A stretch of 54,333 nt of DNA from a virus (Duplodnaviria; Caudoviricetes), in the IMG/VR virus record IMGVR_UViG_3300038416_000116, positions 1 through 54,333 of that record. One strand, written 5' to 3'. The position numbers and the translations under genes are program-made. Positions 4,662-43,442 of the stretch are shown here, in pieces; within the stretch, counting starts at the first letter, position 1, and each line of letters opens with the position of its first letter. The notes below the pieces were generated by a model, which was not told where the DNA came from, searched no databases, and saw only the letters and a list, made by a program, of their open reading frames with translations.

Positions 4662-7600
4662 TTAGCGTCCCTTCTGGGAGCCCATTGAATCACAGATTCC
4701 TTTGAGCCAATCAGATTCCGAACCACCTGAATAAGGAAGGTTATTTAGTCTGTATGACGCAGTAGTATTTGTCCCAGCGGGTTTTGCGATCCTCTCAATA
4801 GATTCTGCGAACGCCTTTAACGAAGATGAATCCATCTTGAGTAACAGCGCGTGCTGGCGATCAGCGGCTAGCTTGAAAGCTTGGGCACGTGCATCAAACA
4901 ACGGCGTACCATCTGTTGTTAACTTCTGAACATCGGTTTCATCGGCGGATACAAGTCTCTTGTCAATCATAGTAGAGACAACTTGCTTACAGAACTCCGC
5001 CTTTGCACGCATAGATTTTTCAGCGCGAAGAGTAGATAACTCAGCCTCAAGCTGTAGTTCCCGGTCAGATTTCTCTGCCTTGACTTCAACCTTTGGCTCT
5101 AAAGTAGTTAGATGTACTTGGATAGGCTCTTTTTCCATCTCTTTAACTTCTTCCTTCTCATGCTTTGCAAGCTCAGTAACATCTTTCTTAGCATGTTCAG
5201 CAAGAGCTACATCCTTTTTCTCGGCGTCAAGTTTAGGATCGGTAGAAGCTTCCTTCTCTTCTTTCTTAGGAGCTTCTTCTTTAGGAGCAGCTTTTTCAGC
5301 TTTAGCCTCTTCTTTGGCTTCAGCTTTAGCAGCTTTTTCCTCTTCCTTCTCCGCCTTCTCTTCTTCCTTTTTAGCAGCAGCCTCTTCCTTCTCGGCTACC
5401 TTTGCATCGGCTTCCATTTGTTTTTCCATGGCAGCCTGAAATTTTTCAAGAGCTTTGCACATAGCTTCCATAGGCTTCTTCAGTTTATCCGCAGGAGTCA
5501 TAGCCTCAAGCATCTTTTCGATATGCTCTAGCTTTTCTTCATCGGACATATCTTCAGGAGCTTTATGTTCGGGCTTATGTTCAGCAGGAGCTTTATGCTC
5601 TTCTTTAGGAGCTTTATGCTCTTCTTTAGGAGCTTCAGGAGCCTTATGTTCCTTCTTTGGAGCCATATCCTTAGGCATATCCATAGGAGGCTTCATATCC
5701 ATTGGAGCTTCCATCTTAGGAGCCGCTTCTGCCATAGGAGCAGCAGCTTCAACTTTATGACTCATACACTCACAGGTTGGAGGGCACATCTTAGAACACT
5801 TCATGGCACACATACACGCACCAGATTTATCTTCATGAGATTCCTCATGAGAATGACTCATACCATCTGTACCATCAAGTCCTTCCATAGGGCCAGCTTT
5901 AACTTCAAGGGTACCTTCCTCTGAAGCTTTCTTACCCTTACCAACGGGCTTGTACTGATCCTTACCAATAGACTTCTGTGAAGGCCACTCTTTACCGGAA
6001 CCTGCGCCAGGAGCGGCAGGGAATCCCCCACCATCCATATCTTTGCCCTCTTCTAACTTTTTGATATGTGACGGAGCATGAGGAGCCTGAAGCTTATACT
6101 GATCTTTACCTACAGCACCAGCAGCTTCTTTAGTTAGTACAGTTGCGTCTAAAATAGAGGCAACTTTTTCAACGCCGTCAGCAGCCAGGCGGGATAGGAG
6201 ATAATTACCGTACTCCCATGATGCTGCGTACGTAGCGCGAGTTGGGAGCATGTCCCCCCAAATTTTGTCAAGAGTTGCCTTTAATACAGGTAGACCCTTA
6301 TCTGTTACAACCCAATAGGATTCCTTTATGGAAGGCTTAGAAACAAAGATTGCGCGATACTCAGCTTTCTTATCGTGCTCTTTTTCTGCCTTATCAGCAG
6401 CTTTCTCTTTAGCCTCTTCCTTCGCTTCAGCTTTAGCTTCGGCCTTGTCTTCCTTCTTGTCCTTAGCTTCCTCTTTATCAGCAGACTTAGAATCAGCTTC
6501 GACTTTAACTTCAGCTTTAGCTACAACTTCAACTACAGGAACTGCAGCAGCCTCGTGATGCTTCTCCTTATTAGCAGGAGTTTTATCTTCAGCTTTTTCG
6601 GCTTCAGATTCGTCCTTTTTCTTAGGAGCCATGTCAGGCTTTACCTTATCCTCTTTATAACCATCTGGTTCAGCTTTCTCTGCTTTGGCTTCCATCTTAG
6701 GAGTCTCCTCAGCTTTAATCTCGGCTTTCTTGGCACGAGTTGTAATAAAATCTACTAGATCGAGATACTCAAATGCAGAGAGCTTCTCACTTAAAATCTT
6801 TTTTAACGTATTTTCAGCAGCAGCTTCAACCTTAGGCTCGGTCTTAACTTCAACAGGGACTATAATAGGTGCGGCTACAGCTTCTGGCGTTGCAACAGGG
6901 GCTTGTAAATCGGCTTTCTTGGGAATCATTTTGAGTAAATCCTCCAACTCGTTGGTTAGGTGAGCAGGTACCTCTTTCTTATCAGAAGCAAACTTCTGAA
7001 TCTCATCTTTAAGCTGTGAGATTACCTGAACGATCTTAGCATTGCTCCAGGCTGGAACATTTACGACAGACAGTTCCGTAAAATTAAGTCCCTGGTTAAT
7101 TGCGTAGGCCTGAGTTCGATTTCCTTTCTTAATATTAAAATCAGGAAGATCAATCTCAGCTAAATAGTCTCTTAATAGTCCCCTACCAAGATGAATACAC
7201 TTCTCATCTTGGTCTGAGTGGATTGTATGACCGCAAATAGAACAAGTAGATGTCATAACAGAACAACCCATACTAACTGAATCTAAAATTGCTGTAGACA
7301 ATTGACGAGCTAACTCAGGGTTAGCAATAGCATCAATCTTACATAAACATTCAATGTACTTCTCTCCAGAGTCAGGATCAACTACAGGATAAGCGTCAAG
7401 TACCTTTCCAATAGCATTGCGAGGATCACTAGACGCATGATTTAAAAACATACTCCGACCAACGAAGGTCGAATGTGATTTTAAAAGCTGTGACCAAGGA
7501 AAGAAGTCGCCATTACCATTAGGTTCGTCGCCGGCAATTGCTTTTGCGGCGAAGTAAAGAAATTCGTTTTTATCTGACGCGATCTTTTCAGAGTCGCGAG

Positions 7601-7685
7601 TATCAACAATAGTACGACCGGAGGCTACTGTATCTAAAGAACCTACTTTAGAAATTATGAGTGTTACTCCGACTTTGTTAATCAT
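4662..7685 (-). CDS. Prohead protease fused to long scaffold domain
   Basis: N-terminal NGNGDFF, MFLNH, SVSMGC-CSICG, FTELSVVNVPA protease motifs; about 750-aa K/E/A/P-rich low-complexity C-terminus; between portal and MCP. Confidence 0.75.
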   Translation of the reverse strand: MINKVGVTLIISKVGSLDTVASGRTIVDTRDSEKIASDKNEFLYFAAKAIAGDEPNGNGDFFPWSQLLKSHSTFVGRSMFLNHASSDPRNAIGKVLDAYPVVDPDSGEKYIECLCKIDAIANPELARQLSTAILDSVSMGCSVMTSTCSICGHTIHSDQDEKCIHLGRGLLRDYLAEIDLPDFNIKKGNRTQAYAINQGLNFTELSVVNVPAWSNAKIVQVISQLKDEIQKFASDKKEVPAHLTNELEDLLKMIPKKADLQAPVATPEAVAAPIIVPVEVKTEPKVEAAAENTLKKILSEKLSAFEYLDLVDFITTRAKKAEIKAEETPKMEAKAEKAEPDGYKEDKVKPDMAPKKKDESEAEKAEDKTPANKEKHHEAAAVPVVEVVAKAEVKVEADSKSADKEEAKDKKEDKAEAKAEAKEEAKEKAADKAEKEHDKKAEYRAIFVSKPSIKESYWVVTDKGLPVLKATLDKIWGDMLPTRATYAASWEYGNYLLSRLAADGVEKVASILDATVLTKEAAGAVGKDQYKLQAPHAPSHIKKLEEGKDMDGGGFPAAPGAGSGKEWPSQKSIGKDQYKPVGKGKKASEEGTLEVKAGPMEGLDGTDGMSHSHEESHEDKSGACMCAMKCSKMCPPTCECMSHKVEAAAPMAEAAPKMEAPMDMKPPMDMPKDMAPKKEHKAPEAPKEEHKAPKEEHKAPAEHKPEHKAPEDMSDEEKLEHIEKMLEAMTPADKLKKPMEAMCKALEKFQAAMEKQMEADAKVAEKEEAAAKKEEEKAEKEEEKAAKAEAKEEAKAEKAAPKEEAPKKEEKEASTDPKLDAEKKDVALAEHAKKDVTELAKHEKEEVKEMEKEPIQVHLTTLEPKVEVKAEKSDRELQLEAELSTLRAEKSMRAKAEFCKQVVSTMIDKRLVSADETDVQKLTTDGTPLFDARAQAFKLAADRQHALLLKMDSSSLKAFAESIERIAKPAGTNTTASYRLNNLPYSGGSESDWLKGICDSMGSQKGR

Positions 7686-26466: not shown

Positions 26467-26560
26467 GGGGTATACCCCGTAGCCCCTGTCCCCCGGGAGG
26501 GGGGGAGGGGGGAGGGGGGAGGGGGAGGGGGAGGGCCGGTCGGGGATACTCCCTCCCGGG
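26467..26560. repeat. GC-rich palindrome plus (G5-7A)n tract inside a 10-bp inverted repeat
   Basis: GGGGTATACCCC; CCCGGGAGGG (26492)...CCCTCCCGGG (26551); G-runs 26495-26535. Confidence 0.85.
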
Positions 26561-37254: not shown

Positions 37255-37338
37255 AGCAGGGAGGTGGCTATTGGCTTGCCACGGGAGTCTCATAAGCTCC
37301 AGCCGAAAGGCGTGTCAGTTCGATTCTGACCCTTGCAA
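37255..37338 (+). tRNA. tRNA with CAT anticodon (Met or Ile2), atypical
   Basis: Acceptor AGCAGGG/CCTTGCA, D stem GTGGC/GCCAC, anticodon arm GGAGT-CTCATAA-GCTCC, variable hairpin GCC-GAAA-GGC, T arm GTCAG-TTCGATT-CTGAC. Confidence 0.75.
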
Positions 37339-37408
37339 CCTTTACTCAACGGAGGGCTAGGCTGTAGTCCGGAGGTGATGCCCGGAGTCTAGCCTTCCAG
37401 AATTTGAT

Positions 37409-37475
37409 TCCCTAGTAGTTTAATGGAAAACACGAGGTCGCACCTCGGACGCAAGTTCAAACCTTGCCAAGGGAG
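37409..37475 (+). tRNA. tRNA-like element with aberrant anticodon loop
   Basis: Acceptor TCCCTAG/CAAGGGA, D arm GTTT/AAAC, CGAGG-TCGCA-CCTCG (5-nt loop), T arm GCAAG-TTCAAAC-CTTGC. Confidence 0.6.
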
Positions 37476-41258: not shown

Positions 41259-41527
41259 TGAACAATTTATGTTGTGTCATACAGCCGGCGAATATATGTT
41301 ATTACTGTGAAGGGGTGTGGTGTCTTTCTTGTTGGTCGAAGATGTTTGCAGGCAGAGGGCTTAACTTCGACAGATGTTCTTTAGGTAATTTTCCAGGTGG
41401 TGACGATCGCGGAGGGCACTACACCTATACATACGGTGGATCTATATACGACAAGTCCTACGTTGATCGTCATTGGATCAGCCGGGCTGCTGCGACCGTA
41501 GAAACGGACAAGAAAATTGCGGGCTGA
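41258..41527 (+). CDS. LCC-family microprotein
   Basis: NLCCVIQP...CYYC...CLSC. Confidence 0.65.
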   Translation: MNNLCCVIQPANICYYCEGVWCLSCWSKMFAGRGLNFDRCSLGNFPGGDDRGGHYTYTYGGSIYDKSYVDRHWISRAAATVETDKKIAG

Positions 41528-41660
41528 TCTTATACTATAAGATGAAGACCCTAAAATTGAACCTCAAGCCGACCCGTATATCCTATTGAGCTTCGGGGTC
41601 TTTAGGGGATGTTCTTGCGGTCACTTTACGGGTAGCTTCCGGTCACTTTAAGGGAGAGTT

Positions 41661-41870
41661 ATGGCCACTCAACGCTTTGGAGTCGGAGATATCGTTGTCG
41701 CGTCGCCTGCAAAAGGTATCCAAATTTATGGAACGGTATCTTGGGTAGGCTCTGACGGTTCAGTTGAAATTACAGAGCCTAGCGGCAGCGCAGGAATGTA
41801 TGCTCAGTATATGGTAACGCATCGTCAACCATCATGGCCGGGCGTAGCCAGCCGTAAGAAAAAGAAGTAA
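41661..41870 (+). CDS. Small SH3/KOW-like protein
   Basis: FGVGDIVV...GTVSWV..DGSVEI. Confidence 0.5.
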   Translation: MATQRFGVGDIVVASPAKGIQIYGTVSWVGSDGSVEITEPSGSAGMYAQYMVTHRQPSWPGVASRKKKK

Positions 41871-41986
41871 GGGACGACAGGCTTGGAGAAACAAGTGACC
41901 AAACGAAAGCGAAAGAAGTCTACGTGGCGACCTCCTACGGCCAAAGAGCTTAAGGCTTTTGAGAAGAAGTACAAACCTAAATCGAT

Positions 41987-42706
41987 ATGAACAATCTATG
42001 CTGTCTCATCAGTCCATCTCTTAAAGACGAATCTGGAAGCGGTTGGTGCCCTGCCCATTGGTTTGAATCAGGGATCAAGTTTGTTACAATAAACGCAGGC
42101 ACCTTTAATATGGGTGAGGATGTGCAGCACGAAGTTACATTAACTCGTAACTATGATCTGGGAGTCTATCCTGTGACACAGCAGGAGTACCAGAGTGTTA
42201 TGAAGGTTAACCCTTCTCAATTTGAAAATCCTTTGTCTCCTGTCGAAACAGTATCCTGGGATGATTTGCAGAAGTTTATAGAGAAGCTAAACCAGATACA
42301 AAAGAAATACTTCTATCGATTGCCTACAGAAGGAGAATGGGAGTATGCCTGTAGAGCGGGCACTAACAAACCTTTTTCATTCAGTGAATCTAAATTGGAC
42401 TCGTACGCTTGGTTTGATAAAAATGCTAAAGGAACATCTCATCCTGTTGGTCAGAAGAAACCAAATAGATGGGGGCTCTATGATATGCACGGCAACATCT
42501 GGGAGTGGTGCCAAGACTGGTACGCAGACTATCCTATAGGTAAAGCGGTAGATCCTTTTGGACCTAAAACCGGCTCGCGCCGGGTCGTCCGGGGCGGCTC
42601 CTGGTACGACGATGCCAGGCTCCTCCGCTCCGCCCGCCGCAACTACGCCGTCCCGGGCTTTCGCTACCCCGGCTTGGGGGTCCGCCTCGTGAGGTCATGC
42701 TGTTGA
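41987..42706 (+). CDS. LCC leader + FGE-sulfatase (C-type lectin fold) protein, DGR-target-like
   Basis: MNNLCCLISP; GTFNMG, YPVTQ, PVETVSW, RLPTEGEWEYACRAG, PN.WGLYDMHGNIWEWC.D, RVVRGGSW...G.RL. Confidence 0.88.
   Translation: MNNLCCLISPSLKDESGSGWCPAHWFESGIKFVTINAGTFNMGEDVQHEVTLTRNYDLGVYPVTQQEYQSVMKVNPSQFENPLSPVETVSWDDLQKFIEKLNQIQKKYFYRLPTEGEWEYACRAGTNKPFSFSESKLDSYAWFDKNAKGTSHPVGQKKPNRWGLYDMHGNIWEWCQDWYADYPIGKAVDPFGPKTGSRRVVRGGSWYDDARLLRSARRNYAVPGFRYPGLGVRLVRSCC
42572..42694 (+). other. DGR variable region (VR)
   Basis: Abrupt GC-rich, A-poor segment; positions that are Asn in FGE-type TRs are all NNC/NNT codons. Confidence 0.7.
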
Positions 42707-42738
42707 CCTTTGGTTTGTTGGACTCTTGGCTGTTGTTG

Positions 42739-42781
42739 TGGCGCCTCGCCCGAGTTGCTGTTGACCGGATGCGAGGCGCCA
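42739..42781. repeat. GC-rich hairpin downstream of VR
   Basis: TGGCGCCTCGC-N21-GCGAGGCGCCA. Confidence 0.8.
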
Positions 42782-42832
42782 GCGAGGATGAACGTTAAAC
42801 GATCTTTGTTGTGTACTCAATCCTAAATCGAT

Positions 42833-43063
42833 ATGAAGAAGCAACTCTGTTGTGTTCTTAATACAAGTGCCATCTGTGATGAGTGTGGAAAGGTTTGGTG
42901 TCGCCCATGTTGGAATCGTTCCCCTAACAAACACCACTTCGGGGTTAATCCCGCGGAAGATGGAATCTTGTACAGAATGTGTCCTAAAACAAAAAGAAAG
43001 GTTATGGCAGAGAGAGACCTTACAACAATAATACATTTGTCGACGAAATGGTTTAAGACATGA
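42833..43063 (+). CDS. LCC-family microprotein
   Basis: QLCCVLNT...CDEC...CRPC. Confidence 0.65.
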   Translation: MKKQLCCVLNTSAICDECGKVWCRPCWNRSPNKHHFGVNPAEDGILYRMCPKTKRKVMAERDLTTIIHLSTKWFKT

Positions 43064-43272
43064 ACAACTTATGTTGTCTACTAGGTCACGTCTACATAAA
43101 GTGTACCCAATGTGATAGCCAATGGTGTTGGCAATGTTGGGTAGAAGACGAAGGTCATGCAGTTAAGTTAGATGAGTCCAGACAAGTATCTCGAAAATGT
43201 CCTGTAACTAAGAAACGTTTAAGTACCAATCGTACTGAGTATCCTGTTTATACCCTTGAGCTTCAACCATGA
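43060..43272 (+). CDS. LCC-family microprotein
   Basis: NLCCLLGH...CTQC...CWQC. Confidence 0.65.
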   Translation: MNNLCCLLGHVYIKCTQCDSQWCWQCWVEDEGHAVKLDESRQVSRKCPVTKKRLSTNRTEYPVYTLELQP

Positions 43273-43442
43273 ACAAGCTGTGCTGTGAAATTAATCCCTT
43301 CCAGATATGTACTAGATGCAAAGAAACTATTTGTGTTCCTTGCTGGAATGCAAATGATATCTGGGCCTGCGTAGAGCCTCACTCAGGACATAACTATCAA
43401 GTAGGAGGACACTTTTGGGTGTATTACAGAAATGACCTCTAA
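43269..43442 (+). CDS. LCC-family microprotein (below cutoff)
   Basis: MNKLCCEINP...CTRC...CVPC. Confidence 0.6.
   Translation: MNKLCCEINPFQICTRCKETICVPCWNANDIWACVEPHSGHNYQVGGHFWVYYRNDL

Follow-up and report, generated by a model that had tools for sequence, protein, structure and literature searches.

The 3′ end of a gene for a protein with an FGE-sulfatase domain, carried by an environmental jumbo phage, is a variable region (VR) of the kind diversified by DGRs. The gene is a genuine DGR variable-protein gene with complete target-side signals, and it is an orphan in the sequence at hand. It lies on IMGVR_UViG_3300038416_000116, a linear IMG/VR viral contig of 54,333 bp (42.1% GC, estimated to be 27% complete) that was analysed over its whole length and is called the window below. 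In our judgement the gene is probably an active or recently active DGR target that is served from outside this contig, with the chances divided roughly evenly between a DGR of the host and unsampled DNA of the phage itself. The features that are relevant to this reading are the following.

41976 to 41991, + strand: 16-nt direct repeat, copy 1, which includes the ATG of the FGE gene
41987 to 42706, + strand: ORF of the FGE gene, 239 aa, a TvpA-like DGR variable protein with an LCC-derived N-terminus (PF03781, 2y3c, Foldseek)
41987 to 42064, + strand: N-terminal 26 residues (MNNLCC...WCPAHW), LCC-derived, with the zinc-knuckle cysteines mostly lost
42080 to 42694, + strand: FGE-sulfatase (C-type-lectin-like) domain, residues 32–236 (Pfam PF03781, E 1.9e-43)
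42572 to 42706, + strand: VR, rich in GC and poor in A, with homology to the TRs and VRs of a DGR clade of HRDC/Avd type (nhmmer E 1.1e-26)
42587 to 42608, + strand: allelic hypervariable patch with sites 42587, 42605, 42606 and 42608 (four alleles compared)
42689 to 42706, + strand: VR-type 3′ end (IMH-like), with AGGTC where TRs read GCTCAC; it holds the stop codon
42707 to 42738, + strand: T/G-rich non-coding stretch with three TTGG repeats
42739 to 42781, + strand: GC-rich inverted repeat with 11-bp arms (42739–42749 and 42771–42781), a 21-nt loop and no T-run
42822 to 42837, + strand: 16-nt direct repeat, copy 2, at the start of the next LCC gene (42833 to 43063)

The minus strand of the window encodes a structural and packaging module at 1–18.7 kb (major head protein, protease, portal and large terminase), and a ribonucleotide reductase is found at 20.4–22.2 kb. 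Between 19 and 54 kb there are about 55 small plus-strand ORFs with an N-terminal LCC, LGC or LAC motif; those tested belong to no Pfam family (0 of 4) and to no PHROG (0 of 9). The source runs of the phage sequence are peat and wetland metagenomes. A search with the major head protein returned 58 related viral contigs, including three complete genomes (G006–G008) of 192–210 kb with terminal repeats, and the full phage genome was taken to be about 200 kb. The terminase has Bacillus phage G as its best cultured relative, at 31% identity. Contig G005 (116.7 kb), with a head protein that is 99% identical, shares the left ~6 kb of the window and then runs the opposite way. At 56% of a ~200-kb genome it covers about 165 kb together with the window, and 36–44 kb (roughly 40 kb) lie in neither. 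Searches with an ATPase near the right end of the window and with an ORF near the far end of G005 returned no further contigs to bridge this gap. Contig G011 carries the label of a provirus, yet its two 14-kb ends both look phage-like. The major capsid protein of the phage had no match among 401 Elusimicrobiota genomes; this search was run without a positive control and is therefore uninformative on the host.

The ORF begins with MNNLCCLISP...WCPAHW and runs on into the PF03781 domain, in agreement with an earlier note on this DNA, which had described an LCC-type start (MNNLCCLISP...WCPAH) joined to a full FGE-sulfatase domain. The top PDB sequence match of the 239-aa product is Treponema denticola variable protein 1 (TvpA, 2y3c; E 5.6e-32), and formylglycine-generating enzymes score 1e-15 to 1e-17 in the same search. 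An AlphaFold2 model of the protein (50 sequences, mean pLDDT 66.6) is confident at residues 25–170 and has low pLDDT at residues 179–229, which correspond to the variable part. Foldseek comparison of this model gave TMq values of 0.69 for 2y3c, 0.65 for PvdO and about 0.58 for FGEs. No catalytic Cys pair was found at the expected position, where the C-x4-C segment of the Streptomyces enzyme 2q17 aligns with Cys-free residues of the query, and the VR translation contains no Cys until a terminal SCC. Since 2y3c is the best relative and the catalytic Cys pair is missing, the product is predicted to be a non-enzymatic, TvpA-like binding protein with the C-type-lectin/FGE fold, that is, a binding scaffold rather than an FGE enzyme. 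An FGE domain was found in none of the ten related phage contigs searched, suggesting that the gene is particular to the phage of the window (strain-specific).

The composition of the gene changes sharply near its end. In 200-nt windows the GC content is 0.385–0.46 over 42000–42499 and 0.65 at 42500–42699, and the number of A per 30 nt, which is 7–15 before, is 1–5 between 42560 and 42769. On the plus strand, 100-nt windows with at most 8 A occur only at 42571–42681 and in a repeat-rich gene at 5.3–6.4 kb. The abrupt switch to GC-rich, A-poor sequence that had been noticed by eye is thus real: the last 135 nt (42572–42706) go from ~41% to 65–76% GC. An nhmmer profile of 13 family TR and VR sequences has a single match in the window, 42572–42703 (E 1.1e-26), so that the GC-rich block starts exactly where homology to the TRs starts.

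Within 42572–42706, 29 sites are A in at least two of three related TRs (TR-A sites below). The window is non-A at 20 of them, and 27 of the 29 fall on codon positions 1–2 of the window ORF. At the remaining 106 sites of the VR, the window agrees with at least one of the three TRs in 97 cases. The positions that the earlier note had read as NNY codons, on the assumption of a template with AAC or AAT, therefore agree with real related templates. The closest TR, that of metagenome contig L074, is identical to the window at 50 of 51 non-A sites in 42572–42634 but at only 38 of 55 in 42635–42706, and none of the three related TRs (L074 and an Elusimicrobiota MAG) is cognate to the window VR. Considering the agreement with related TRs, the substituted TR-A sites and the VR-type 3′ end, we conclude that this stretch is a real variable region.

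The region around the stop codon distinguishes the VRs of the family from its TRs. AGGTC is present in eight of ten family VRs, as it is in the window VR, and in none of the three TRs, whereas GCTCAC with a conserved spacer is found in all three TRs and in none of the ten VRs. At least two TTGG motifs within 50 nt past the stop codon occur behind six of the ten VRs and none of the TRs; the window has three. A profile of the ten VR flanks has only one window match below E 1, at 42681–42730 (E 1.6e-6), the next one having E 1.2. The IMH-like end, the TTGG repeats and the hairpin belong to the target and are not copies of the TR. The T/G-rich stretch followed by an 11-bp inverted repeat, both expected from the earlier reading, could be located precisely, at 42707–42738 and with the arms given above. 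The DNA fold of 42690–42800 has a free energy of -21.7 kcal/mol (z -4.24), and none of 200 shuffled sequences was as stable. The 42739–42781 hairpin was not called a terminator; most family VRs are followed, with comparable spacing, by strong GC hairpins that lack T-runs, and 34% of DGRs have been described as carrying a GC-rich inverted repeat past the IMH (PMC5758913). A second, small hairpin at 42691–42710 was called terminator-like and was discarded, as it is not conserved across the family VRs.

The related sequences came from pattern scans with a short pattern from the conserved start of the GC-rich block, which returned no viral contig, four stretches in metagenome contigs and one in species genomes, none of them a cognate TR. 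L074 is a 72.8-kb metagenome contig (locus GC 0.585), on which the TR (AAC-rich, A fraction 0.20) is arranged tail-to-tail with the VR of an AAA-FGE protein that exceeds 704 aa. Another hit, L078, sits in the Elusimicrobiota MAG G015, which has two RVT_1 genes and nine matches to window positions 42560–42800 on several contigs, with 67–74% identity. The cassettes of this MAG have the order FGE target, HRDC protein, bAvd, RT and TR, and additional VR copies lie on separate contigs and 50 kb away from the RT. The reference clade is thus a real DGR, in which an FGE target, HRDC, bAvd and RT are combined with a TR and with additional VR copies in the same MAG. The VR DNA of the window was matched at E ≤ 1e-8 in eight of the 401 Elusimicrobiota genomes, the best match having 76% identity. 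Among the homologues of the G015 RT with at least 68% identity, the three with an organism name are all Elusimicrobia, and the named ones at 51–56% belong to the Deltaproteobacteria, Myxococcota and Desulfobacteraceae. Two further hits, L075 and L076, on a contig of 72% GC, are VR-like sequences of another family and are irrelevant here.

The window VR and those of the G015 and L074 cassettes are 67–77% identical overall and nearly identical at the non-A sites of the 5′ half, and they have the VR-type end, the TTGG repeats and the position of the hairpin in common. In contrast, the identity of the target bodies with the phage protein is only 33–46%, the three TRs are all non-cognate, and the genomes of these cassettes have 58–59% GC versus 42% in the phage. 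A similar organisation is known from T. denticola, whose HRDC-type DGR represents Architecture C of Wu et al. 2018 and has seven non-adjacent targets (PMC5758913); the clade related to the window likewise combines HRDC and Avd with several non-adjacent targets.

Alleles of the gene, all of them assembled contigs from peat and wetland metagenomes, allowed a comparison between samples. The 90% protein cluster of the 239-aa ORF has four members, in which 236 of 239 columns are invariant and residues 201 (V/I/L/I), 207 (Y/Y/C/I) and 208 (D/D/N/N) vary. The underlying bases are G/A/C at 42587, T/A at 42605, A/G/T at 42606 and G/A at 42608, so that two of the four sites are tri-allelic. A 62-kb contig from run X2, compared over 41500–43300 (1801 nt), differs from the window only by 42587 G>C, 42606 A>G and 42608 G>A, and metagenome contig L077 (1128 nt, window 41872–42999) only by 42587 G>A, 42605 T>A, 42606 A>T and 42608 G>A. 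Together these are seven nucleotide differences, all non-synonymous, at four sites, and nothing else differs. The one residue difference of the third allele also lies at these four sites. Each of the four is a TR-A site (hypergeometric p 0.0018 within the VR). That the gene is a DGR-type target whose variable region is followed by a hairpin, as the earlier note had proposed, is borne out by the related TRs and VRs and by these alleles, which differ only at TR-A sites; the target also has an IMH-like end. Roux et al. take as their criterion that non-synonymous SNVs are in excess in the VR relative to neighbouring genes (PMC8144416); judged by this, the pattern looks like recent DGR activity, though it was seen between samples.

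It should be noted that only four of the 29 TR-A sites vary, all within a patch of 22 nt at the VR's 5′ end, and that the other 25 are the same in every allele. In canonical homing the 3′ boundary is set at the IMH, and the 5′ one is loose (PMC5758913). Since independent events of full-length homing would re-randomise all A sites, and since the canonical fixed boundary is the 3′ one, the patch represents a non-canonical footprint. It falls in the half of the VR where the L074 TR and the window share 50 of 51 non-A sites. Its source may be editing in short patches from a non-cognate template, a cognate TR with few adenines, or a bias in the set of assembled alleles.

In runs X4, X5 and X6, phage contigs that are otherwise identical to the window break off at 42598, 42586 and 42577 and start again at 42663, 42754 and 42789, respectively, and two of these left ends lie one base before a TR-A site (42587 and 42578). 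We considered these holes as evidence of VR variation and rejected them, as the same runs have other low-depth gaps; the holes prove nothing.

Searches for the machinery were extended from the window to its relatives and to metagenomes. The window contains no second copy of 42540–42790, no RVT_1 and no bAvd, and the TR/VR profile matches nothing but 42572–42703, consistent with the earlier failure to see any TR, RT or Avd there. RVT_1 was found in none of the 58 related phage contigs, including the complete genomes G006–G008, bAvd in none of five, and TR-like DNA in none of G005–G009, where the best matches were at most 23 nt with E 0.003 or worse. A cognate TR was found in none of the three pattern scans (viral contigs, metagenome contigs, species genomes), and the metagenome scan did return a phage allele (L077) but no TR for it. 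In run X2 the phage contig has a depth of 16.9 and the depth in the VR bins equals that of this one contig. This weakly suggests that the assembly of that run lacks a TR of at least 80% likeness, but a TR could be less than 80% alike.

The history of the gene can partly be read from its surroundings. A perfect 16-nt repeat at 41976–41991 and 42822–42837, with exactly two matches in the window against 0.01 expected by chance, indicates that a duplicated start of an LCC gene flanks the FGE cassette on both sides. The 5′ end of the FGE gene aligns with the 5′ ends of four LCC paralogues and encodes their N-terminal M-x(1-3)-L-C-C motif (as MNNLCC); judged from this alignment, the first 26 residues do derive from the 5′ end of the neighbouring LCC gene. 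The zinc-knuckle cysteines are largely lost, the C-DE-C...W-C-RP-C-W of the neighbour corresponding to K-DE-S...W-C-PA-H-W in the fusion. With 239 aa and one of four Cys kept, the fusion falls outside the LCC definition of two CxxC knuckles in 50–90 aa, and the idea of LCC as a tag for ligand-binding modules, put forward in the earlier note, is not supported, also in view of the ten relatives searched, none of which had the FGE domain. The FGE body has a phage-like GC content and is 41–46% identical to the Elusimicrobiota targets and 33% to that of L074, and the best database homologues show 52–60% identity. The VR and the body thus have different histories, as expected if the VR was overwritten from a TR. 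Capture of the whole gene from a GC-rich host, which had been offered as an alternative origin, does not agree with the phage-like GC of the body, with its identity of only 41–46% to the Elusimicrobiota targets or with the GC-rich part beginning exactly at the TR homology.

In the scenario that we favour, the VR, i.e., the last 135 nt of the gene, would have been written by cDNA from a GC-rich TR of the HRDC/Avd-type clade seen in Elusimicrobiota, and adenine-directed mutagenesis would have acted on it recently within the peat phage population. The RT, the accessory proteins and the template would be supplied from outside the 54-kb contig, either in trans by the DGR of the infected cell or by an unsampled cassette of the phage. 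Action in trans has been established experimentally with an avd-TR-brt plasmid that edits a target with GC14, IMH and stem-loop on another replicon (PMC12875486; PMC5758913), which makes editing of a replicating phage genome by a host DGR mechanistically plausible.

The host-encoded variant of this scenario, in which the phage has no DGR and the Elusimicrobiota-type RT, Avd, HRDC and TR of its host mutagenise a phage VR that mimics the host's own remote targets, is a tentative proposal when taken by itself. The VR and also the 3′ flank, which is not derived from a TR, match the VRs of the Elusimicrobiota-type clade, and in this clade further VR copies occur on separate contigs and at 50 kb from the RT. 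The absence of RVT_1 from all 58 related phage contigs, the absence of the FGE domain from the ten relatives searched, the experimental precedent for trans action in BPP-1 (PMC5758913, PMC12875486) and the position of the variable patch, which falls in the very half of the VR that the L074 TR matches at 50 of 51 non-A sites, also favour it. However, no cognate TR was found in the contigs and genomes searched, and the non-A differences of the 3′ half would be overwritten if a non-cognate TR homed in the canonical way. A more specific form of the proposal would account for the short patch. A lytic jumbo phage without a retroelement may carry decoy-like host DGR target signals, and the HRDC/Avd/RT/TR system of the host may hypermutate the phage binding protein in short patches where the cDNA equals the target. 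Editing of this kind would explain the 22-nt patch if the host template were cognate only in the 5′ half of the VR; we consider this specific form improbable as a whole. We know of no precedent for a host DGR that edits a phage gene.

Rather unlikely, yet a live rival because the variation is confined to the 22-nt patch, is a fossil or grafted target. The VR and its 3′ flank would then have come from a DGR-bearing genome, possibly by recombination onto an FGE gene of the phage, and would no longer be diversified, and the alleles would be standing variation. The RT, TR and Avd not being found in the window, the relatives or the scans, the 25 of 29 TR-A sites that are fixed across alleles and the perfect 16-nt repeat, which suggests a recent rearrangement, are consistent with such a history. 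On the other hand, two sites are tri-allelic, and seven differences fall on four sites with none elsewhere in 1.1–1.8 kb of DNA that is identical at all other positions, a pattern that requires hypermutation after the lineages split. Furthermore, the GC-rich block begins on its left at the start of TR homology and not at an arbitrary junction, and the non-coding cis-elements are intact.

Returning to a target served from outside the contig, its other variant is a non-adjacent DGR of the phage itself, with RT, Avd and TR in the 36–44 kb that lie outside the window and G005. We regard this variant, considered separately, as unlikely. The window (27%) and G005 (56%), with an overlap of ~6 kb, leave room for a cassette in the ~200-kb genome, phage DGR targets up to ~50 kb from the RT are on record (PMC5758913), and a strain-specific FGE gene could go with a strain-specific cassette. 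Against this variant, there is no RT in the 58 relatives with their three complete genomes, no TR-like DNA in G005–G009, and no TR beside the phage allele L077 in the metagenome scan; the VR depth in run X2 (16.9), equal to that of a single phage contig, argues only weakly in the same direction, since a TR could fall below 80%.

Finally, an ordinary formylglycine-generating enzyme or another FGE-family enzyme, with a 3′ end merely of odd composition, is hardly credible, for although the Pfam domain is named FGE-sulfatase and PHROG 18508 labels the protein a 'kinase', the catalytic position lacks the Cys pair, the closest solved structure is a DGR variable protein, and neither the VR/TR homology (E 1.1e-26) nor an allelic variation limited to A sites fits an enzyme.

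Among the known systems, TvpA resembles the phage protein in its FGE-type C-type-lectin fold with a C-terminal VR (2y3c, E 5.6e-32, TMq 0.69). It differs in that its bacterial genome encodes the RT and TR, none of which was found on the contig of the FGE gene, and in that the phage protein has an LCC-derived N-terminus and only 239 aa. The Mtd system of Bordetella phage BPP-1 also has a phage-borne target whose 3′ end carries the VR; its IMH differs from IMH*, and a GC-rich inverted repeat further downstream promotes homing (PMC5758913, PMC12875486). However, mtd, avd, TR and brt are adjacent in BPP-1, whereas the window yielded no RT, Avd or TR; Mtd is the tip of a tail fibre, whereas the FGE gene lies in an array of small non-structural ORFs; and the hairpin of the window stands 33 nt past the stop codon, behind TTGG repeats and with a 21-nt loop. 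The remote targets of cellular DGRs, like the FGE gene, lie far from the RT and are recognised via cis-elements, with trans action shown by means of plasmids (PMC5758913, PMC12875486), but the known ones share a genome with their DGR. Remote targets are not expected for phage DGRs according to Wu et al. (PMC5758913), and no case of a phage-borne target without a phage DGR was met in the part of the DGR literature examined. Surveys of DGRs take the RT as their starting point and, as they themselves state, miss non-adjacent targets (PMC8144416), so that a phage-borne target without a phage-borne DGR would be outside their view.

If the mutator belongs to the host, a retroelement would functionally cross the host–virus boundary, and the phage would gain hypervariation at no coding cost. 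On a conservative reading, the gene is a clean natural example of variation restricted to A sites in an environmental jumbo phage, and a phage DGR target other than a tail fibre. In either case, the TTGG repeats between the IMH and the hairpin, present behind the VRs of one DGR clade and not behind its TRs, represent a candidate new target-side cis-element.

Within the Elusimicrobiota-type HRDC/Avd DGR clade, VRs carry CTTGG-type repeats on their 3' side, with a GC hairpin beyond them, an arrangement seen in the flanks of five comparison loci (L074, L081, L082, L083 and L093); the corresponding repeat stretch of the window is 42707-42738. The TRs of the clade are followed by a conserved spacer in place of these repeats. 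The CTTGG-type repeats behind VRs may represent a target-recognition element, of which no description was met in the portions of the DGR literature consulted.

VR-like sequences were also found in other contigs. A second large phage contig (L002 / G001; 136.5 kb, locus GC 0.30) carries an FGE gene whose final ~130 nt, at L002:10500-10670, are GC-rich and VR-like. The 136.5-kb contig has no second copy of this stretch; an RVT_1 ORF that contains a TAG codon in frame is located 56 kb away. This gene may be a second orphan or remote phage target. One locus of a 34-kb IMG/VR contig encodes almost nothing but VR-like tails (GGSW...GFR) with A-rich linkers between them:

L006:90-400: two tandem mini-ORFs.

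Two further FGE genes with VR-like ends occur in a 10-kb metagenome contig with a GC content of 0.72 (L075/L076), the ends being separated by 3.1 kb; despite an RGGSW-coding 17-mer that both ends share with the window, they belong to a different VR family. Besides the VR, the only A-poor plus-strand stretches of the window are the low-complexity repeats of one gene:

4662-7685, minus strand: 1007-aa protein with a prohead-protease-like N-terminus and long low-complexity repeats.

An N-terminal M-x-x-L-C-C (or LGC/LAC) motif is common to about 55 small ORFs of the window and is followed in most of them by CxxC...WCxxCW. No match was obtained for any of the four LCC-type ORFs tested against Pfam or the nine tested against PHROG.

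19372-54000, plus strand: array of ~55 LCC-type small ORFs, 50-130 aa each.

Two calls in the window are probably neighbouring tRNA genes:

37255-37340: tRNA-Met (ARAGORN).
37409-37475: tRNA (Rfam).

An intergenic GC island, reaching a GC of 0.78 over 100 nt versus 0.42 window-wide, contains a tract that looks capable of G-quadruplex formation:

26480-26540: G-rich tract of repeated GGGGGA/GGGGGGA units.
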